From the NCBI GenBank assembly GCA_045126895.1, contig JBGVPE010000020.1, positions 60,306-124,305 on the forward strand: 64,000 nt of DNA, in the 5' to 3' direction. The notes beneath the pieces are model-generated. The model saw only the letters and a list, made by a program, of their open reading frames with translations, ran no database searches and was not told the origin of the DNA. Every line of letters begins with the position of its first letter. Positions within the stretch are counted from its first letter, which is position 1. Position numbers and translations under genes: made by a program. Source of the stretch: Acutalibacteraceae bacterium. GTDB lineage: Bacteria > Bacillota > Clostridia > Oscillospirales > Acutalibacteraceae. Below are positions 29,270-40,919 of the stretch, piece by piece.

Positions 29270-29974
29270 TTAGTCTTTCCTAATTTTTGCAATTAATGAC
29301 ACGCTGTTTTCAATATCTGCAATTCCGTAAATAACTTTTGAGCCTGAAACCCATCCTTCAAAATGATATCCGTCAGGGCAATAAGCACCTGCATTAGGCA
29401 TATCGGCTGATTCAAGGTCAGAGCCTACAGGCACGGTAAGAGTATCAATCACCTTACCGTCATCAAGGCAAAAATAGATATTACAATGGGTTCTGTTTTT
29501 AAGAACAACCTTTGAAGCATTAACCTGAGCAGGATAAGTTTCCATAACAGTACCGTCATAAGTAACGGTTATATCTCCAAAATTTTTAACATCGTCTGCT
29601 TTGACTTTTTTACCCTCAGAATCAACTACCTTGACATTTTTAAGTCCAATGGTTACTTTATCCGCAGATTCAGCAACGTCACTTTCTTTATCAGGAATCA
29701 ATATAAGCACATCACCTGAAACACTGTCAATCTCAGCGTCAAAGGTATAAATTTTATTCTGCTTTTCTGTTGTAGAGGATGTGGTCTTTTCTGTATCTTT
29801 TTTGTTGTCAGATTCTTTATCATTATTATCATAACCGTTATCTGACTGAACATAAGATGTTGACGATGATGTTGTGCTGTCAACAGGGGTGCTTTCGATT
29901 TTATCACTGAGATAAACAACACCCACTGTTCCCGCAACTGCTAATGCTGCTATAGCAGCAACATATTTTTTCAT
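29270..29974 (-). CDS. Secreted or anchored protein with an S/T/D-rich linker and a C-terminal Listeria-Bacteroides-repeat-like motif
   Basis: Signal anchor MKKYVAAIAALAVAGTVGVV, a low-complexity linker, and C-terminal ...CPDGYHFEGW... typical of the Flg_new repeat. Confidence 0.5.
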   Translation of the reverse strand: MKKYVAAIAALAVAGTVGVVYLSDKIESTPVDSTTSSSTSYVQSDNGYDNNDKESDNKKDTEKTTSSTTEKQNKIYTFDAEIDSVSGDVLILIPDKESDVAESADKVTIGLKNVKVVDSEGKKVKADDVKNFGDITVTYDGTVMETYPAQVNASKVVLKNRTHCNIYFCLDDGKVIDTLTVPVGSDLESADMPNAGAYCPDGYHFEGWVSGSKVIYGIADIENSVSLIAKIRKD

Positions 29975-31534: not shown

Positions 31535-34500
31535 TTAAAAACTAAAAAGACTCATCTGAGAGCTTTCGGGAAGCCCGTTCAAAGCACCTGCAACACGCAG
31601 GGTTTCAATAACAGATTTACTTACACCTGCACGCTGTTGAAGCTCTTCTATCGACATATATTCGCCCTGACCGTCATCTCTTGCAGCAGCAAGAGCTTTA
31701 GCAGCACTTTCACCCGTACCGGCCATAGATAAAAACGGAAGGCGTATTTTGCCGTCTTCAATTTTATAAACGGTTGCCTCTGATTTATAAATATCAACAG
31801 GTAAGAATTCCACACCTCGTGCCATCATTTCATTAACAACCTGCATAGCAACATACATATTTTCTTCTTTGGCAGTGGCTTCATTACCTTTTGCTTTGAT
31901 TTCGTCCATAACAGCTTTAACTGCTTTTCTGCCGTTCATAATAGCAACGGTGTCAAGGTCTTCACCTCGTACTGTCATATAAGTTGCATAGTACTCTTTC
32001 GGATGATAAATCTTATACCAGGCAAGTCGCATAGCCGCAATAACATAAGCTGCAGCATGGGCTTTAGGGAACATATATTTAATTTTCATACAAGAATCAA
32101 TGTACCACTGTGGTACATCGTGGTCTTTCATCGCCTTAAAATGAACATCTGTAAGAAGCTTTGTTGCATTACCCTTACGTACAATTTCCATAATTTTAAA
32201 TGCCATATCAGGCTCAAGACCTCTGTGCATAAGGTAAACCATAATACTGTCTCGTGTACCGATAACATCTGAAATGGTACAGGTTCCGTTTTTGATAAGG
32301 TCCTGCGCATTTCCCAGCCATACGTCTGTACCGTGAGAAAGACCTGAAATCTGAAGCATATCAGAAAAGTTTTTCGGCTGAGCATCAATAAGCATCTGAC
32401 GGACAAATGGCGTACCCAATTCAGGAAGTGAAAGCGTACCTGTTTCACAGTCAATATCTTCACAGGTTACGCCTAAAGGCTCGGGCGTTGTAAGAAGCTT
32501 ATAAACATTAGGGTCGCAAACATCGGCATCCATAACTGAAATACCTGTCGCATCTTCAAGATGCTTATAAATTGTGGGCACATCATGACCCAGGTTATCA
32601 AGCTTCAGAATTGTATCATGAAGAGCGTGGAAGTCGAAGTGGGTTGTGCGAAGTCCTTTATCGGCATCGTCTGCCGGATGCTGAATAGGTGTGAAATCTT
32701 CAGCCTCCATATCACCGGGAACAACAACCATGCCGCCCGGATGCTGACCGGTTGTTCTCTTAACACCTACGCAACCTCTTGTCAGACGGTCTTCCTCTGC
32801 TCTATGAAGAATTTTCCCTTTTTCTTCAAGCCATTTTTTAACAAAGCCGTATGCAGTTTTATCAGCAAGGGTGCCGATTGTACCTGCTTTGAAGGTATGA
32901 GTAACACCGAAAAGTGTTTCTGTATATCGATGAGCATAGAACTGATATTCACCGCTGAAGTTAAGGTCAATATCAGGCTGCTTATCACCTTTGAATCCGA
33001 GGAAGGTTTCAAACGGAATATCGTGACCTTCACGGGTCATAAATGTATCACAATGAGGGCAATTCTTAGGCGGCAGGTCAAAACCGGAGCCTACGCTGCC
33101 GTCTGTAAAAAATTCACTGTGTTTACACTTTGGGCATACATAATGAGGCGGTAAGGGATTAACCTCAGAAATACCTGCCGCATGGGCTACGAAAGACGAG
33201 CCTACACTGCCTCGTGAGCCGACATAATAACCGTTTTCTTCAGAGTTATATACAAGCTTCTGTGCAATCATATAAAGAACACCGAAACCGTTTGAAATAA
33301 TCGAAGTAAGCTCTTTATCAAGACGCTTACTGATAAGCTCAGGCAACGGGTCGCCGTATTGCTCTTTGGTTCTTCTCCAACAGATTTCTGTAAGCTCCTC
33401 GTCAGCTCCCTCAATTTTAGGCGGGAATGTACCGTATGGAATAGGTCGTATTTTTTCACACATATCAGCAATTTTATTGGGGTTAGTAATAACAACCTCT
33501 TTTGCTGTTTCGTCACCAAGATATGCAAACTCATCAAGCATTTCCTGTGTTGTACGAAGGTAAAGGGGTGCTTGCTGAGAAGCATCAGCAAAGCCCTGAC
33601 CTGCCATAAGAATCTCACGGAAAATTGCATCACCTTTATCAAGGAAATGAACGTCACCGGTAGCTACAACAGGTTTGCCTAACTTATCTGCAATAGCAAT
33701 AATTTTTCTGTTTATGTTTTCAATGTCGGCAAAAGAGTTAATATCTTCATACTCTTCTCTCTGACTTCTTATCATAAACTCGTTATTGCCGTTTGGCTGA
33801 ATTTCAAGGTAATCATAAAATTCAGCAATCTGCATTATCTTCTCTTCGCTTTCGCCAAAAACTATGGCGTGATACAGCTCACCTGCTTCACAGGCACTGC
33901 CCACAAGTATACCTTCACGATGTTTGATGAGCATACTTTTAGGGATTCTCGGTCTGCGCTTGTAATATTCAAGATTTGAAGCTGTAATCAATTTATAAAG
34001 ATTTTTTAAACCAACATTGTTTTTTGCTATAAGAATCTGATGGTAAGTTTTAAGCTCTTTAGGGTTAGAACCCGGTTCTGCCAGATCATCAACAAAATAT
34101 CCTTCCATACCGTAAAGGATTTTAATACCTGCTTTATCAGCTGTATTCATAGCTTCAGGGAAAGCCTGAACAACACCGTGGTCAGTGATTGCAATCGCTT
34201 TATGCCCCCATTTTGCAGCGCGTGATACCAGAGCCTTTGCACTTGCCATACCGTCCATTGATGACATATTTGTATGAAGATGAAGCTCCACACGTTTTTC
34301 CTGAGCATCATCATTTCTTGTTTCTAATTTTTCAATAAGAGTTACGGCTTTTGTGTCAATTACATAACAACGCATATACGGGTCGTGGGTAACAAAACCG
34401 CGAATCATAACGGTTACACCGTCTTTCATCTTATCAACAAGCTCTTTACAAATAGCTTTTTCACCAAAGATTTTTGCTGAGTAAGATGATGTATAGTCAG

Positions 34501-35281
34501 TAAGATTGAATGTGATAATATTCTTTTTGCCGTCTCGGGTTTCTCTTGCTTCAAATCCGAAAACATCACCCCAGACAACAACTGTTCCGTCTTCAGGTGA
34601 AATATCTGCAATCGGAACGGGTTTAACTTTAATCTGATTGCCAAAAATCGGTTTTGCATTTGAAAGAGAAATCGGCAAATCGTCAAAGGTCTTTTCTGTA
34701 GGTTTTTTAGGTGTGTCAGCCTTGGGCTTTTCTTCAACAATTTTGACTTTAGATGCTTCTGCCTGCTGAATTTTTTCAAGCTCTTTTTTTTCGTCAAAAT
34801 CTACAGCTTCGACAGAAGACTCAATTTTAACGCTGACTGCTTTTGAAAACTTATGACGAACAAGCTTAACGATATATTCTTCAACACCTAATTGCTTTAA
34901 GATTTCTTTTCCGTTTCTTTTTAATGTAATTTTAATATTATCCTGATTCAACGAATATGTAGCACTTTCAAGGAATGTATGGCCCGCACTGAAAGTATCT
35001 TTTAAATCAGCTGCAAGATAAGGCAACCAAGCTTCACCAAATAAATCCGAGTTAAAATAATACTCTGCTTTTATTTCATTAAGGCGCATAAATGCATTGA
35101 TTTGTGAAACAGCCGAATCAAACTCTTTTTTATGAATAAAGTGGCCAAACCGTACAACCATTGAGATTGTACGGTTATCAAGATTTGCATCGATTGTTGC
35201 AATCTGCACATTTTCAAATTTTGCACTTAAATTTTTATCTATACACTCACCGAAAAGCGATAAAAATTCAACATCCTGCAT
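31535..35281 (-). CDS. polC: PolC-type DNA polymerase III alpha subunit lacking the 3'-5' exonuclease insert (1248 aa)
   Basis: PolC N-terminal domain, OB fold, PHP (RVELHLHTNMSSMDG...AITDHGVVQAFPEA), palm/fingers (KRTTGQHPGGMVVVPG) and C-terminal HhH. It sits in the canonical rseP-ispG-polC position. PHP runs straight from GMEGYFVDD through a ~13-aa linker into HQILIAKNNVGLKNLYKL, with no DEDD motifs. Confidence 0.9.
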   Translation of the reverse strand: MQDVEFLSLFGECIDKNLSAKFENVQIATIDANLDNRTISMVVRFGHFIHKKEFDSAVSQINAFMRLNEIKAEYYFNSDLFGEAWLPYLAADLKDTFSAGHTFLESATYSLNQDNIKITLKRNGKEILKQLGVEEYIVKLVRHKFSKAVSVKIESSVEAVDFDEKKELEKIQQAEASKVKIVEEKPKADTPKKPTEKTFDDLPISLSNAKPIFGNQIKVKPVPIADISPEDGTVVVWGDVFGFEARETRDGKKNIITFNLTDYTSSYSAKIFGEKAICKELVDKMKDGVTVMIRGFVTHDPYMRCYVIDTKAVTLIEKLETRNDDAQEKRVELHLHTNMSSMDGMASAKALVSRAAKWGHKAIAITDHGVVQAFPEAMNTADKAGIKILYGMEGYFVDDLAEPGSNPKELKTYHQILIAKNNVGLKNLYKLITASNLEYYKRRPRIPKSMLIKHREGILVGSACEAGELYHAIVFGESEEKIMQIAEFYDYLEIQPNGNNEFMIRSQREEYEDINSFADIENINRKIIAIADKLGKPVVATGDVHFLDKGDAIFREILMAGQGFADASQQAPLYLRTTQEMLDEFAYLGDETAKEVVITNPNKIADMCEKIRPIPYGTFPPKIEGADEELTEICWRRTKEQYGDPLPELISKRLDKELTSIISNGFGVLYMIAQKLVYNSEENGYYVGSRGSVGSSFVAHAAGISEVNPLPPHYVCPKCKHSEFFTDGSVGSGFDLPPKNCPHCDTFMTREGHDIPFETFLGFKGDKQPDIDLNFSGEYQFYAHRYTETLFGVTHTFKAGTIGTLADKTAYGFVKKWLEEKGKILHRAEEDRLTRGCVGVKRTTGQHPGGMVVVPGDMEAEDFTPIQHPADDADKGLRTTHFDFHALHDTILKLDNLGHDVPTIYKHLEDATGISVMDADVCDPNVYKLLTTPEPLGVTCEDIDCETGTLSLPELGTPFVRQMLIDAQPKNFSDMLQISGLSHGTDVWLGNAQDLIKNGTCTISDVIGTRDSIMVYLMHRGLEPDMAFKIMEIVRKGNATKLLTDVHFKAMKDHDVPQWYIDSCMKIKYMFPKAHAAAYVIAAMRLAWYKIYHPKEYYATYMTVRGEDLDTVAIMNGRKAVKAVMDEIKAKGNEATAKEENMYVAMQVVNEMMARGVEFLPVDIYKSEATVYKIEDGKIRLPFLSMAGTGESAAKALAAARDDGQGEYMSIEELQQRAGVSKSVIETLRVAGALNGLPESSQMSLFSF

Positions 35282-35294
35282 AATTCTTCCTCTT

Positions 35295-36353
35295 TTATAA
35301 TTTATCTATTTCTTCAAGTAATGCCTTGACAATTTCTTTTTCGGGTACTTTTCTGAGAATCTCGCCTTTTTTGAAAATCATACCGCATCCGTCTCCCCCT
35401 GCGACACCTATATCAGCCTCTCTTGCTTCACCGGGTCCGTTTACAATACAACCCATTACAGCAACTTTTATAGGTTTTTCACAATTTTCAAGGGCAGATT
35501 CCACCTCATTAGCAAGACCTATAAGGTCAATTTTTGTTCTACCGCAAGTGGGACACGCAACTATCTGAACTGAATTCTTTTTAAGACCTACAGCCTTAAG
35601 AATGTCATATCCTGCAGAAATTTCTCTTACAGGGTCATCGGTCAACGACACACGGATAGTATCACCTATACCGTTTAACAACAATGAGCCGATGCCTACG
35701 CTCGATTTAACAATCCCCATTCTGCTTGTGCCGGCTTCTGTAACACCGAGATGTAACGGATAATTACACTTTTCACTTGCGAGGGTGTAGGCCTTCACCA
35801 TATTCTGAACATCTGATGATTTGATTGAAATAACTATGTCATCAAAATCAAATTTGTTAAGTAAAGATGCATGATACATCGCACTTTCTACCAACGCATC
35901 AGGGGTAGGTGCTCCGTATTTTGCAAGAATTTCTTTTTCTACAGAGCCGGAATTAACACCGATTCTGATAGGGATATTTTTTTGTTTGCAGATATCGGCA
36001 ACAGCTTTCACTCTGTCGTCAGAGCCGATATTACCGGGGTTGATTCTTATCTTATCAACACCTGCATTTGCACATTCTATTGCAAGACGATAGTCAAAAT
36101 GAATATCTGCAACAACCGGGATTGATACATTATTTTTAAGCGCTTCAATAAGCTTGACTGCATCTTTATCAGGCACAGCACTTCTTATAATCTGACACCC
36201 TGCTTTTTCAAGCTCAACAGCCTGTTTAACACTTGCATCAATATCTGATGCCGGTTTATTTAGCATAGACTGAACACTCACGGGCGCACCGCCGCCGATT
36301 AAAAGGTTACCGACTTTAACTTGCTTTGTATTTTTTCTTTCCATATTAACCAC
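35295..36353 (-). CDS. ispG: 4-hydroxy-3-methylbut-2-en-1-yl diphosphate synthase
   Basis: Full-length IspG pattern (PVSVQSM, RINPGNIG, CPTCGR, MGCIVNGPGE). Alternative start at 36344. Confidence 0.95.
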   Translation of the reverse strand: MVNMERKNTKQVKVGNLLIGGGAPVSVQSMLNKPASDIDASVKQAVELEKAGCQIIRSAVPDKDAVKLIEALKNNVSIPVVADIHFDYRLAIECANAGVDKIRINPGNIGSDDRVKAVADICKQKNIPIRIGVNSGSVEKEILAKYGAPTPDALVESAMYHASLLNKFDFDDIVISIKSSDVQNMVKAYTLASEKCNYPLHLGVTEAGTSRMGIVKSSVGIGSLLLNGIGDTIRVSLTDDPVREISAGYDILKAVGLKKNSVQIVACPTCGRTKIDLIGLANEVESALENCEKPIKVAVMGCIVNGPGEAREADIGVAGGDGCGMIFKKGEILRKVPEKEIVKALLEEIDKL

Positions 36354-37425
36354 CTGTCACTAATACCCATATATCTTTAAAACATATAACTACCATAAAG
36401 ACTAACAATAAAGCTAACCCTACACCGTGGATAATTGATTCATACTTCTGATTCATCGGCTTTCTTCTTATCAATTCGATAAATAAAAACAGTAATCTGC
36501 CGCCGTCAAGAGCAGGTATAGGAAGAAGATTCATAATACCGATATTTATTGTGATAAGAGCCATTATTTTAAACAGTCCTGTATAATCCTTTGCCTGTTG
36601 TGATGCCTCTGCCGTTTCTGAAACAAAATCAACAACGCCTATCGGACCTGATACATCTTTGATAGAGTATTTGCCCGTTATCATATCAAAAAGGCTGAGA
36701 TACACCATTCGGCATATAGATACCGACTGCTTGAAAGTATCTTTAAAAATTGTACCTGCTGTTGTATCAACACCTACGATTATAAGATTATTCAGAATAT
36801 CAGTTTTTACACCGTCAACCTGAATTTTTTTACCGTCTCGCATAACCGTAGCCGAGAATTCACCGTCACCGTCAAAATCGCGTGAGGCAAGGTAATAAAT
36901 ATCTTCATAATAAAAGACATTTTTACCGTCAATTTTTTTGATTACATCACCGGATTTAAGACCTTCATATTCTTTTATCTGTTTTACTTCTTTGCTTTGA
37001 GAAGAAACGGGCACATTAAAGTAGTTGACCATATTTGTTGCTGAAAGCTCATCACTGTTCACTGTGAGTATACATGCAACAATAATAAGACCTAAAAGAA
37101 TATTTATAACTGCACCTGCAGCCACAATAATTATCCTCTGCCAACAAGGCTTGTTGTTAAAAGCACGCTCATCATCGCTGGCTTCATCCTCACCTTCCAT
37201 GCTGACAAATCCACCGATAGGGAGCAAACGCCATGAATAAGCGGTTTCACCCTTTTTGCGACTTAAAATTTTAGGGCCCATACCCAAAGCAAATTCATTC
37301 ACCTTAACTTTAAAAAGCTTGGCAAATGAAAAATGGCCGAATTCATGCACCATTACTATAATGCCAAAAAATAAAATTGCAACAAGTATTGTCCACTTGC
37401 CTGCAAGCCATGAGAGAAATTCCAA
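36346..37425 (-). CDS. rseP: RIP metalloprotease RseP (M50 site-2 protease)
   Basis: HEFGH zinc motif in TM1, a PDZ-like middle region, and NLLPIPALDGG. Confidence 0.9.
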   Translation of the reverse strand: MEFLSWLAGKWTILVAILFFGIIVMVHEFGHFSFAKLFKVKVNEFALGMGPKILSRKKGETAYSWRLLPIGGFVSMEGEDEASDDERAFNNKPCWQRIIIVAAGAVINILLGLIIVACILTVNSDELSATNMVNYFNVPVSSQSKEVKQIKEYEGLKSGDVIKKIDGKNVFYYEDIYYLASRDFDGDGEFSATVMRDGKKIQVDGVKTDILNNLIIVGVDTTAGTIFKDTFKQSVSICRMVYLSLFDMITGKYSIKDVSGPIGVVDFVSETAEASQQAKDYTGLFKIMALITINIGIMNLLPIPALDGGRLLFLFIELIRRKPMNQKYESIIHGVGLALLLVFMVVICFKDIWVLVTGG

Positions 37426-37485: not shown

Positions 37486-38628
37486 TTATATCCTTGAAAG
37501 AACATAATTTCTTGCCCATTTATCTGTTTCATTAACATCAGCAAGTGTATAATCATCCTTGCTTGCAGCGTCTGAAACAGCAGCACCAACCAATTCCTCG
37601 ATTTCAAGGAACTTTATTTTACCCTGTCTGAAAGCAAGATTTGCAGCTTCGTTAGCTGAATTTGCCACTGCAGGATAAAGACCGCCCTTTTTGATAGCTT
37701 CACGGCAGATATTTATACAACCGAAAGTTTCATAATCAGGCTTTTCAAATGTCAATGTAGCGTAATCTGTTAAAGACAGCTGCTTAACCGGTGAAGGTAT
37801 ACGGTTAGGATAAGTAAGAGCATACTGAATAGGGATTCTCATATCAGGCACACCAAGCTGAGCAATAACAGAATTATCACAATATTCAACAAGTGAATGA
37901 ATAACGCTCTGACGATGAACTACTATATCCACATCGTCAGGATTCATATCAAAAAGCCATACAGCTTCAATAAGCTCAAGACCCTTATTCATCATTGACG
38001 CGGAATCAATGGTAATTTTTGCACCCATGCTCCAGTTAGGGTGATTAAGTGCCTGTTCAACAGTTACACCCTCAAGCTCATTTCTTTTTTTGTCAAAGAA
38101 AGGTCCGCCTGATGCAGTAAGAATAAGACGTTTGATTTCTTTTTTGTCGACACAGCCCTGTAATGACTGAAAAATAGCTGAATGCTCACTGTCAACAGGC
38201 AAAAGATTGACACCTTTTGCACGGGCATTTTTTGTAACCAATGCACCACCTGCAACTAAAGTTTCTTTATTGGCAAGGGCAATTTCGTTACCTGATTCAA
38301 TTGCAGCAAGAGTAGGCTCAAGACCTGCCATACCCACAACGCTGTTTAAAACATAATCAGCTTCAAGGCCGGCGCAATAACAAACACCTTCAAGACCTGC
38401 AAGAACCTTTGTTGATGTATCAGCAACCTTAACTGCAAGCTCCTGTGCTGATTTTACATCAGCCAAAGCTGCGAACTTTGGTTTATATTTTCTGATTTGT
38501 TGCTCAAGAATATCAGCATTACTGCCGGCAGTCAGCGCAAGCACTTCATAGCCTTGCATATCAACAACCTCAAGAGCCTGCGTACCGATTGAACCTGTTG
38601 AACCCAGAATTGTAAGCAACTTACTCAT
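37486..38628 (-). CDS. dxr: 1-deoxy-D-xylulose 5-phosphate reductoisomerase
   Basis: ILGSTGSIG, LANKE, DSEHSA and NHPNWSMG blocks. Start taken at ATG 38628 (MSKLLTILG). The track start 38676 would overlap uppS by 44 nt. Confidence 0.95.
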   Translation of the reverse strand: MSKLLTILGSTGSIGTQALEVVDMQGYEVLALTAGSNADILEQQIRKYKPKFAALADVKSAQELAVKVADTSTKVLAGLEGVCYCAGLEADYVLNSVVGMAGLEPTLAAIESGNEIALANKETLVAGGALVTKNARAKGVNLLPVDSEHSAIFQSLQGCVDKKEIKRLILTASGGPFFDKKRNELEGVTVEQALNHPNWSMGAKITIDSASMMNKGLELIEAVWLFDMNPDDVDIVVHRQSVIHSLVEYCDNSVIAQLGVPDMRIPIQYALTYPNRIPSPVKQLSLTDYATLTFEKPDYETFGCINICREAIKKGGLYPAVANSANEAANLAFRQGKIKFLEIEELVGAAVSDAASKDDYTLADVNETDKWARNYVLSRI

Positions 38629-38632
38629 ATTT

Positions 38633-39355
38633 TCACACTCCACCGAAACGTCTGTTTCTGTTGTTGTAATCATCAATAGCTCTGTCTAAATCTTCCGTTG
38701 TGAAATCAGGCCATAAAATGTCAGAAAACCAGAATTCAGAATACGCTGATTGCCATAAAAGGAAATTTGATATTCTGTATTCACCGCTCGGTCTGATTAT
38801 AAGGTCCGGGTCAGGCTGACCTGCAGTGTAGATATTGGCAGAGATATCATCCTCTGTAATATCATCAGGGTCAAGCTCACCGTTTTTAACTTTTCGGGCA
38901 ATTTTTTTAACTGCCTCTGCAATTTCAAGTCTGCCGCCATAATTGATTGCAATATTAACATCGATTTTAGCAGCGTCTTTTGAATTTTCTTCAGCACTTT
39001 CCATAAGGCTGACAATATCTTCAGGCATATCATCACGTCTGCCGATGAAGTGCATCCTCATACCCTTCTGAACATTTTCGCTTTCTCTGTCTTCAGCTTC
39101 ACCAAGATAATCTCTGAAAAGGTCCATTATTGCTGCAACCTCTTCAGGCGGTCTGCGCCAATTCTCTGTAGAAAAAGCATAAAATGTTATACTCTGAATA
39201 CCGATTTCACACGCATAATCGCAGATTTTACGAAAAACATTTGCGCCTTCTTTATGACCGTCCCACCGTTTAAGGCCTCTCTGTTTTGCCCAACGGCCGT
39301 TACCGTCCATAATAATACCGATATGTTTCGGCATATTTCTTTGCATAAAATTCAC
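38633..39355 (-). CDS. uppS: Isoprenyl transferase (undecaprenyl diphosphate synthase)
   Basis: HIGIIMDGNGRWA, FSTENWRRP and RISNFLLWQ blocks. Confidence 0.95.
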   Translation of the reverse strand: MNFMQRNMPKHIGIIMDGNGRWAKQRGLKRWDGHKEGANVFRKICDYACEIGIQSITFYAFSTENWRRPPEEVAAIMDLFRDYLGEAEDRESENVQKGMRMHFIGRRDDMPEDIVSLMESAEENSKDAAKIDVNIAINYGGRLEIAEAVKKIARKVKNGELDPDDITEDDISANIYTAGQPDPDLIIRPSGEYRISNFLLWQSAYSEFWFSDILWPDFTTEDLDRAIDDYNNRNRRFGGV

Positions 39356-39416: not shown

Positions 39417-39971
39417 TCAGATTTCCATAACTTCCTTTTCTTTTGCAGAAGCAAGCTTATCAATATCTTTGATAAAGCCGTCAGTAATTTTCTGAACTTC
39501 ATCTTCACCGTTTTTAAGATCATCTTCTGTGATTTCAGATGCCTTCTGCATTTTCTTGAGTTTGTCCATAGCATCACGGCGGATTGAGCGAACTGCAACT
39601 TTTGAATCCTCTGCCATTTTGCTTACATCTTTAACGATTACTTTTCTGTTTTCTTCAGTAAGCTGTGGGAATGTAAGGCGGATAACAGTACCGTCATTCT
39701 GTGGGTTGATACCGATATCTGATGCCTGAATTGCTTTTTCAATTGCATTAAGTACAGATTTATCCCATGGCTGAATTGTGAGAATTCTTGCTTCAGCAAC
39801 AGAAACTGATGCGAGCTGATTAACCGGAGTAGGTGTTCCGTAATAGTCAACTGTTACTTTATCAAGAACAGCAGCATTGGCTCTGCCTGCGCGGATTGCA
39901 GCATAATCCTTTCTGAGTACCTCAAGTGTTTTACCCATTTTTTCTTTGGTATTAGCATAAAGTTCTTTCAT
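39417..39971 (-). CDS. frr: Ribosome recycling factor
   Basis: 184 aa, colinear with Frr (IRAGRANAAVLD..., LTEENRK). Confidence 0.95.
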   Translation of the reverse strand: MKELYANTKEKMGKTLEVLRKDYAAIRAGRANAAVLDKVTVDYYGTPTPVNQLASVSVAEARILTIQPWDKSVLNAIEKAIQASDIGINPQNDGTVIRLTFPQLTEENRKVIVKDVSKMAEDSKVAVRSIRRDAMDKLKKMQKASEITEDDLKNGEDEVQKITDGFIKDIDKLASAKEKEVMEI

Positions 39972-39992: not shown

Positions 39993-40691
39993 TTATTCTT
40001 TAACAATTGTTCCTATATTTTCACCTTTGACTGCTCTGATAATATTCTCAGGGTCTTCAAGGTTAAAAACAAGAATTGAAATACCGTTATCACGGCAGAG
40101 TGATGCAGCAGTACTGTCCATAACCTTGAGGCCTTTTGCAAGCACCTCAGAATGAGAAAGGACATCATATTTAACCGCATCATCAAACTTATTCGGGTCT
40201 TTATCATAAACACCGTCAACATTTGTTGCTTTAAAAATAATATCTGCCTGAATTTCAGCAGCTCTTAATGCAGCAGTTGTATCTGTTGAGAAAAACGGAC
40301 ATCCTGTTCCGCAGCCAAAAATCACAACCTCACCGTCTTCCAGGTGTTTAACTGCATCGCGGGCAACAAACTGCTCAGCTATAGGCTGCATACCAACAGC
40401 TGACATAACCCTTGCTTTTACGCCTAATTGCTCAAGAGCTTCACAAAGAGCAAGTGAATTCATAACAGTTGCAAGCATACCCATATTATCTGCTCTCGTT
40501 CTGTTCATATCACCGCTTGAACGGCCGCGCCAGAAGTTACCGCCGCCCACAACAAGACCAACCTGAACACCGGTGTCAACAACTTGTTTAACATAGGAAC
40601 AAACATTGGTAACTGTATCAAAATCAATACCGTGACCGGCTTCTCCTGCAAGCACCTCACCGCTTAATTTCAGAAGTATTCTTTTATACAT
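39993..40691 (-). CDS. pyrH: UMP kinase
   Basis: [11 protein letters not shown] and [10 protein letters not shown]. Start at ATG 40691 behind GGAGGG; the track start is 40721. Confidence 0.95.
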
Positions 40692-40919
40692 AAAATCCCT
40701 CCGACCTACATTTATATTCAATTTATTTTAACTTAAAATCGGCTTTATGTAAAGAGTAATTTATATAAAATTTATATATTTTTCTTTACCTGACCTTTTT
40801 GAAATATAAATTCAAAAATATCTGAAAATATGCAATAAATTTCTCTTTTGATATAGACAAAAAACACTTAAAATAGTATAATAATCGATGTATGTATTAT
40901 TTTGAATGGAGGCGATAAA

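Follow-up and report, generated by a model that had tools for sequence, protein, structure and literature searches.

The analysed stretch of DNA (64,000 nucleotides, hereafter the window) encodes a PolC-type replicative DNA polymerase that lacks the DnaQ-like proofreading exonuclease (Exo) domain. In the reading that we favour, with a probability of roughly 60%, the gene is a genuine polC from which Exo was deleted in frame, the PHP domain proofreads, and a DnaE1-type polymerase possibly shares this task. PolC-type replicases usually hold two candidate proofreading sites, the DnaQ-like Exo and PHP, and natural Exo-less PolCs are a ready-made test of the PHP site as an active proofreader in Clostridia. 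The gene is located as follows.

31535..35281, minus strand: polC coding sequence (PolC-type DNA polymerase III alpha subunit without the DnaQ-like Exo insert), 1248 aa plus stop, based on a single ORF, NCBIfam matches and colinearity with 3F2B

The ORF exceeded the cut-offs of both NCBIfam PolC equivalogs, NF001688 (1500.2 bits, cut-off 873) and TIGR01405 (1352.8 bits, cut-off 1043), and Pfam recognized PHP (residues 332-495), DNA_pol3_alpha (629-898), the finger domain (911-1041) and HHH_6. In trees, the protein grouped with PolC clusters. NCBIfam equivalog matches also yielded the gene order pyrH-frr-uppS-dxr-rseP-ispG-polC, in which the genes upstream of polC occupy the following positions.

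35295-36353, minus strand: ispG
36346-37425, minus strand: rseP
37486-38676, minus strand: dxr
38633-39355, minus strand: uppS
39417-39971, minus strand: frr
39993-40721, minus strand: pyrH

The equivalog scores and the gene order agree with the first-pass annotation, which had recognized a genuine PolC at the canonical Firmicute locus. A profile search of the contigs of the 93%-complete assembly did not reveal a second polC. The window gene is the genuine PolC replicative polymerase of its host. With the canonical PolCs (B. subtilis, S. aureus, E. faecium 9QPC) it shares the equivalog family, the genomic context, the polymerase core and the clamp motif, but these enzymes carry an integral DnaQ-like proofreading domain, whereas the window PolC does not. 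The host is an uncultured gut bacterium of the Acutalibacteraceae (Oscillospirales, Clostridia), and relatives are labelled Acutalibacteraceae, Oscillospiraceae or Clostridia.

The domains of the protein were arranged as follows, from the N- to the C-terminus.

34322..34606, minus strand: OB-fold domain, residues ~226-320, N-terminal to PHP, which is the PolC-specific order (3F2B alignment, Pfam, AF2)
34085..34306, minus strand: N-terminal half of PHP, residues 326-399, with the ligands H334, H336, D343, H368 and E393
34043..34084, minus strand: linker LAEPGSNPKELKT-Y, ~14-15 residues (400-413), replacing the ~207-residue Exo-containing segment of exo+ relatives
33452..34042, minus strand: C-terminal half of PHP, residues 414-~610, with the ligands H414, C464, D543 and H545
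31832..33451, minus strand: polymerase core (palm, thumb, fingers), residues ~611-1150 (Pfam), with D770 and D772 in PDIDLNF
31568..31816, minus strand: tandem helix-hairpin-helix (HhH) domain, residues 1156-1238 (Pfam HHH_6, E=1.3e-13)
31544..31558, minus strand: putative sliding-clamp-binding motif QMSLF at the C-terminus, residues 1242-1246, read from the sequence

The alignment with 3F2B starts at residue 226, at the OB fold, for which the AF2 model predicts a beta-barrel (pLDDT ~87-93) and Pfam gave weak matches to tRNA_anti-codon (residues 250-301) and DNA_pol3_a_NI. The model as a whole had a mean pLDDT of 82 and superposed on 3F2B at TM 0.87/0.92. The catalytic residues D770 and D772 were kept in 212/212 relatives, and nearly all of these 212 also kept the C-terminal pattern Q[MIL][ST][LF]F. 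QMSLF was called clamp-binding on the basis of the published QxxLF clamp-motif consensus (PMC12926913).

The absence of Exo was evident from several kinds of analysis. In the window ORF, neither RNase_T (PF00929) nor any other exonuclease family was detected with Pfam at E<=1, the NCBIfam search returned no exonuclease domain either, and a motif search found none of the ExoI, ExoII and ExoIII motifs; together, these searches rule out a hidden exonuclease domain in the ORF. The PolC profile matched in two stretches, with residues 408-1246 corresponding to profile positions 610-1444, such that about 200 profile positions (about 410-610), which represent the Exo insert, were skipped. In the AF2 model, the linker at this site forms a short loop that joins two PHP strands (pLDDT 82-92). 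Its C-terminal part, NPKELKTYH, aligns with the post-Exo sequences ADPLKLKSYH and ADPKKIKNIYH of exo+ relatives, and reads DPKEIKNTYH in close kin. This part of the linker is homologous to the post-Exo segment of the exo+ relatives, and the gene therefore originated by in-frame deletion of ~195 aa. From the letters alone, the first-pass annotation had described a missing DEDD insert of ~190 aa, a junction at about 34043-34084 and a lack of the Exo I/II/III motifs, and had suggested an RNase_T scan. The linker lies exactly at that junction, and the Pfam result, the gap in the profile match and the motif search bear out the rest.

The arrangement closely resembles that of PolCs from which Exo was removed in the laboratory. 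Engineered delta-Exo enzymes (G. kaustophilus 3F2B/3F2C/3F2D; S. aureus delta-415-609, PMC3656037) have near-identical excision boundaries and a short linker, and they are active polymerases. The G. kaustophilus protein 3F2B is colinear with the window PolC from residue 226, at 52% identity. Two differences were noted: the laboratory constructs also lack the N-terminal domain, whereas the natural enzyme has kept its N-terminal region, and the engineered linker is of the Gly/Ser type (...lgsgsg...), whereas the window PolC contains native post-Exo sequence.

Because the genome is a MAG of 84 contigs, the missing domain could in principle be an assembly or binning artefact, or polC could be a decaying pseudogene. 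The first-pass annotation had proposed a survey of relatives, and Exo loss was indeed seen across the lineage. Within the genus, every genome with a PolC (24 congeneric genomes) contained a match colinear over residues 1-1248, and the Exo-less architecture was also present at 80 named public Acutalibacteraceae/Clostridia loci. PF00929 was found in none of the best 120 independent protein clusters (contigs up to 506 kb), which come from many studies and show the same colinear architecture. The reading frame is open, the catalytic motifs are all intact, and dN/dS was ~0.05 for the whole of polC, ~0.04 for PHP and 0.2-0.3 for the linker. The conservation across genomes and clusters and the dN/dS values rule out both an assembly artefact and a pseudogene, the probability of which we put at next to nothing. 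The OB fold, the PHP barrel, the polymerase active site, the HhH domain and the clamp motif are all kept under strong purifying selection.

Exo-less PolCs as such have already been published in 2014, for related anaerobes, and the window gene is a further example. According to Timinskas et al. 2014 (PMC3919608), Exo is missing from 6% of PolCs, the hosts of which are Clostridia and Negativicutes. The enzymes described there are alike in having the NTD, OB, PHP, Pol3 and HhH domains without an Exo insertion, a Clostridia host and a conserved PHP metal site; unlike them, the window PolC comes from a new lineage, uncultured animal-gut Acutalibacteraceae. The first-pass annotation had left open whether the variant was new, and because of this earlier description the novelty is small. 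Added here are the repeated, independent loss of Exo and the homology of what remains as the linker, neither of which is stated in the accessible part of Timinskas et al. 2014.

With regard to these losses, one common origin of all Exo-less PolCs was rejected (AU p=1.3e-68). A single loss within an Acutalibacteraceae-level clade, a group defined post hoc from the tree, was not rejected (p=0.16). Exo+ and exo-less sister enzymes occur inside one family, the Acutalibacteraceae, and such sister pairs suit comparative fidelity assays; one genus appears to contain both types. Exo was lost many times independently, and what is left behind is almost always an intact PHP site.

The question arises how a polymerase of this kind proofreads. 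Three options had been listed in the first-pass annotation, a DnaQ-like protein acting in trans, the PHP domain and a second polymerase, and we judge these to be the right ones. It had also named the PHP metal ligands as a point to check, and all nine proved to be intact in the window PolC. The corresponding motif HHDHEHCDH was intact in 212/212 exo-less relatives; in PMC12926913, a PHP is likewise called 'active' by these nine residues. When sequences were grouped into 50%-identity clusters, the motif was intact in 23/24 exo-less clusters versus 67/105 exo+ clusters, an association that is confounded by phylogeny, as the PHP-degenerate exo+ clusters are probably mostly from Bacilli-type lineages without reported Exo loss. 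The one exo-less cluster with a degenerate motif, P0250, indicates that an intact PHP is no absolute requirement.

The gene descends from an Exo-containing PolC that lost ~195 residues in frame; the deletion took out the DnaQ-like DEDDh domain, and the PHP halves were rejoined via the short loop. We infer that the PHP site of the window PolC acts catalytically at the 3' ends of DNA. In the mechanism that we propose, the enzyme's own PHP trinuclear metal site would most likely excise 3' mismatches, with a possible contribution to proofreading from a partner polymerase of the DnaE1 type. PHP-domain ('ancestral') proofreading has been demonstrated for M. tuberculosis DnaE1 (PMC5636811), which, like the window PolC, is a C-family replicase with a nine-residue PHP site and no covalent DEDD exonuclease. 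It differs in belonging to the DnaE1 group, with a different domain order, and the PHP activity demonstrated there is for the window PolC a deduction. The literature that we found contains neither a demonstrated exonuclease activity for any PolC PHP domain nor a test of how Exo-less PolCs proofread. That the excision is tolerated is seen from the engineered S. aureus delta-N delta-Exo construct, which polymerizes fast (kpol 330 per s) and speaks in this respect for the favoured reading; its description as exonuclease-deficient speaks against it (PMC3656037). The intact PHP ligands could alternatively serve a structural or another catalytic role.

As to the trans option, no nuclease gene was found beside polC, where the neighbours encode an M20 peptidase, a 234-aa protein, NifS, NifU and MnmA. 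The 234-aa protein had no significant match to any family.

In E. coli-type replicases, the epsilon subunit is encoded separately, and this precedent makes proofreading in trans conceivable, by an undetected DnaQ or by a separate DEDDh exonuclease such as the KapD/ERI1-like protein encoded on another contig than polC.

G000 C33:18227-19099: KapD-like candidate gene

The assembly contained no RNase_T-family gene other than this one, and no further match to the family was found there. The protein has 291 aa and a C-terminal zinc ribbon, and from its motifs (DLE near the N-terminus, HHRALDD) it is apparently active. The search for a stand-alone dnaQ-like gene, as envisaged in the first-pass annotation, was thus successful in that such an RNase_T gene exists, but the gene is KapD-like and not a dnaQ: the best match was KapD (NF005838, 90.8 bits, below the cut-off of 169), and the score for TIGR00573 (dnaq) was 55.7 bits, also below the cut-off (71.5). 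Orthologues occurred throughout the family, in 75/78 exo+ and 53/70 exo-less genomes. They were missing from 17/70 exo-less versus 3/78 exo+ genomes, and ten of the 17 were explicitly listed without a match while being 93-100% complete. Because the distribution of the orthologues is not linked to the type of PolC, the KapD-like DEDDh protein was rejected as a specific substitute, and we regard proofreading by a separate exonuclease in general as improbable.

The third option concerns DnaE. Neither DnaE nor a second PF07733 match was found in the 93%-complete assembly, and DnaE was likewise not found in two of the four closest relatives of the window genome. Most congeners gave DnaE-like matches, among them every one of the nine genus genomes with a completeness of at least 94%, and the length of DnaE in most congeners is ~1160-1190 aa. 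In Timinskas et al. (PMC3919608), all but one Exo-less PolC are assigned to Clostridia with PolC plus DnaE1; this DnaE1 pairing, reported for all such genomes, was not found in the incomplete window assembly.

The DnaE1 option states that PolC is non-proofreading and that a DnaE1-type polymerase with an intact PHP mainly replicates or edits in trans, assisted by mismatch repair; the role of PolC would be reduced, and the domain loss therefore tolerated. The idea was raised by Timinskas et al. for PolC plus DnaE1 Clostridia, and the presence of DnaE in most congeners speaks for it. No PolC polymerase match at all was obtained in 24/301 family genomes, and several of these PolC-negative genomes belong to twice-sampled genera and are >95% complete, which fits a dispensable PolC. 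Exo-less genomes are also smaller than exo+ genomes (median 1.8 Mb versus 2.5 Mb). However, the very strong purifying selection acts on PolC with its PHP domain included, the invariant PHP ligands of the 212 exo-less sequences are hard to explain if the site is idle, and the window assembly and two close relatives provided no DnaE. We consider this explanation unlikely, albeit a serious one, and prefer a PolC that proofreads with its own PHP site, possibly together with DnaE1.

At the other extreme, the Exo-less PolC could be the sole C-family polymerase of the sub-lineage, replicating both strands with PHP-only proofreading, which we hold to be very improbable. This reading starts from the missing DnaE in the window genome and in two of its four closest relatives. 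The published rule is that a DnaE-type subunit is present in every bacterium, and this reading, if true, would contradict it.

PolC is an antibiotic target, e.g. of ibezapolstat (PMC12592400), and its variation in gut commensals is therefore of some practical interest.

The first-pass annotation had described a PolC at the canonical locus that lacks the 3'-5' exonuclease (Exo) insert, and this observation was confirmed in every particular. The gene and its relevant features are as follows.

31535-35281, minus strand: polC, 1248 aa in a single unbroken frame
Residues 332-495: PHP domain (Pfam)
Residues 629-898: DNA_pol3_alpha domain (Pfam)
Residues 400-413, nt 34043-34084, minus strand: linker LAEPGSNPKELKT, at the very junction that had been proposed

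Pfam also recognized the finger domain and HHH_6. No exonuclease family was matched by Pfam, even at E<=1, and a motif search of the protein revealed none of the ExoI, ExoII and ExoIII motifs, as had been claimed. The two NCBIfam PolC equivalogs matched with 1500 bits (cut-off 873) and 1353 bits (cut-off 1043). The match came in two pieces, and because residues 408-1246 align with profile positions 610-1444, about 200 profile positions, which represent the Exo insert, are skipped. The top solved structure by sequence, colinear with residues 226-1247, was 3F2B, the G. kaustophilus PolC from which Exo was removed by engineering, whereas the window PolC naturally lacks it. The uppS-dxr-rseP-ispG-polC context described there was found, and the genes upstream of polC also include frr and pyrH. 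A 234-aa ORF without a significant Pfam or NCBIfam family lies between an M20 peptidase gene and nifS (29270-29974, minus strand).

The gene thus encodes a true PolC that is conserved, naturally devoid of Exo and of a known type. In Timinskas et al. 2014 (PMC3919608), 6% of PolCs are reported to lack the Exo insertion; these stem, with one exception, from Clostridia and Negativicutes, always from genomes with PolC and DnaE1, and the PHP ligands of PolC are described as strongly conserved. A text search of the literature yielded no study with experiments on a PolC that naturally lacks Exo. The present analysis adds to this published variant that Exo was lost many times independently across the PolC tree.

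The genome assembly of the window comprises 84 contigs and 1.98 Mb and is 93% complete. Public relatives, titled Acutalibacteraceae, Oscillospiraceae, Ruminococcaceae or Clostridia bacterium, originate mostly from gut metagenomes of ruminants, horses and humans; among the loci listed, a roe-deer colon MAG is closest. In all same-genus genomes bearing PolC, the protein was colinear with residues 1-1248 (frames of 1252-1300 aa), whereas in other families of the order PolC is 1398-1572 aa long and its match is split near residue 402. The best 120 protein clusters (90% identity), drawn from NCBI, ENA, Logan and JGI assemblies with contigs of up to 506 kb, were 965-1267 aa long, the majority 1247-1267 aa, and PF00929 was among the precomputed domains of none of the 120. 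dN/dS values against close relatives, rough because dS is close to saturation, were about 0.05 for the whole gene, about 0.04 for PHP and about 0.03 for the polymerase core; the linker had 0.2-0.3. The Exo-less architecture is therefore real and lineage-wide.

In relatives with a DEDDh (DnaQ-like) Exo insert inside PHP (exo+), about 207 residues separate the fifth PHP ligand from the sixth, a segment that starts with ...VDD-x(15-20)-FDxETTGL and ends with ...ADPLKLKSYH or ...ADPKKIKNIYH. The window junction reads GMEGYFVDD-LAEPGS-NPKELKTYH, and the closest kin have ...DPKEIKNTYH. Because NPKELKTYH and DPKEIKNTYH resemble the exo+ segment ends, the C-terminal part of the linker is native sequence from behind Exo. 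The best reading is that an ancestral gene with Exo lost about 195 residues by an in-frame deletion. Linker lengths range from 6 to 38 aa between sub-lineages, with 14-15 aa in the subgroup of the window and 28 aa in the remaining genus. In an AlphaFold2 model of residues 200-1248 (mean pLDDT 82.4), the linker is predicted to form a short loop joining two PHP strands (pLDDT 82-92). An engineered S. aureus PolC from which residues 415-609 were removed polymerizes fast (PMC3656037). As the model also superposes on 3F2B (TM 0.87/0.92), excision at the Exo site is compatible with catalysis.

The Acutalibacteraceae hold both types, with about 70 exo-less and 78 exo+ PolCs among 150 rows listed from 300 genomes. 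Median genome sizes were 1.8 Mb versus 2.5 Mb, respectively, in a comparison that ignores phylogeny. A FastTree of 129 representatives (50%-identity clusters, >=1100 aa) was calculated with the insert columns left out. Sixteen changes of the Exo state were required, and well-supported branches force no fewer than 13 of them. IQ-TREE analysis of 47 sequences placed the window PolC among 22 exo-less Acutalibacteraceae sequences that form a clade with full support; an exo+ cluster is sister to this clade (SH-aLRT 90). The classification of key rows was confirmed by Pfam. A single grouping of all exo-less sequences was rejected (p-AU 1.3e-68), and one loss shared by the 29 exo-less members of the family-level clade, a group chosen after the tree had been seen, was not rejected (p 0.16). 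Because of this tree pattern, and because regain of the domain at the identical site is unlikely, Exo was excised from PolC recurrently and independently.

In 24 of 301 Acutalibacteraceae genomes (e.g. G050, G061/G239, G099/G263, G100/G264, G113/G276, G141, G148 and G188), the PolC polymerase had no match at E<=1e-60; several of these genomes are >95% complete and from genera sampled twice. Full, Exo-less and polymerase-less polC states seem to coexist in the family.

The first-pass annotation had named a second polymerase, a trans-acting DnaQ-like protein and the PHP domain as potential sources of proofreading. Neither a second polC nor any other C-family polymerase was found in the window's own assembly. 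Most congeners carry a DnaE that is about 1160-1190 aa long, among them nine out of nine genus genomes that are >=94% complete; one of the four closest relatives has DnaE and another has a dnaE cut by a contig end. The absence from the window's genome would most simply be due to assembly incompleteness. A DnaE-type polymerase was not found in three of the five closest-subgroup genomes (the window's own, G002 and G021; 93, 87 and 86% complete), which reflects either a hard-to-assemble locus or a real loss.

A profile search of the assembly revealed a single RNase_T-family match:

G000 (own genome) contig C33, 18227-19099, minus strand; locus L001, 1150-2025: KapD/ERI1-like DEDDh exonuclease, 291 aa

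Its top family match is KapD, under the cut-off. The DEDDh site of the protein seems to be intact, and at the C-terminus the protein bears a CxxC...CxxC zinc ribbon. About 85% of the Acutalibacteraceae genomes share the gene; among the matches listed, an orthologue was present in 75 of the 78 exo+ genomes and in 53 of the 70 exo-less ones, and a match was explicitly absent from ten exo-less genomes with a completeness of 93-100%. Recruitment as a replacement upon Exo loss was rejected, and the presence across both PolC types argues for a family-wide housekeeping nuclease. Overall, the interpretation given in the first-pass annotation was partly supported. The KapD-like gene is also one difference between two genomes of genus g35 with different PolC types:

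G058 contig C74, 6752-9274: PolC, 1433-aa frame, split match, exo+
G237 contig C4, 6810-10511: PolC, 1243 aa, colinear, exo-less

This discrepancy represents either a very recent Exo loss or a mis-binned contig.

All nine PHP metal ligands are intact in the window PolC (H334, H336, D343, H368, E393, H414, C464, D543, H545). The pattern HHDHEHCDH is the literature criterion for an 'active' PHP site in a 2026 survey of where 'active' PHP and DnaQ proofreaders occur, which reports three in most Clostridia (PMC12926913). It was complete in 212 of 212 exo-less sequences collected. Among the 129 representatives, 23 of 24 exo-less versus 67 of 105 exo+ clusters kept it (Fisher p 0.001, uncorrected), an association that is confounded by relatedness and only suggestive. 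PHP proofreading has been proven for M. tuberculosis DnaE1 (PMC5636811); proof for any PolC was not found in the literature. Judged by this conservation, PHP-based proofreading would be the most likely mechanism for the window PolC, with a probability of roughly 0.6.

Two other PolC clusters deviate from these patterns. P0250 (1178 aa) lacks Exo and has a degenerate PHP motif (HRSLE-TDQ); PHP is degenerate in its exo+ sister P0180 as well. P0250 would be a PolC without either recognizable proofreading site. P0183 (1515 aa) has kept the Exo insert, but at ExoI it has ...VSIHIGTTGDS in place of FDxETTG, and its DEDDh site may be dead.
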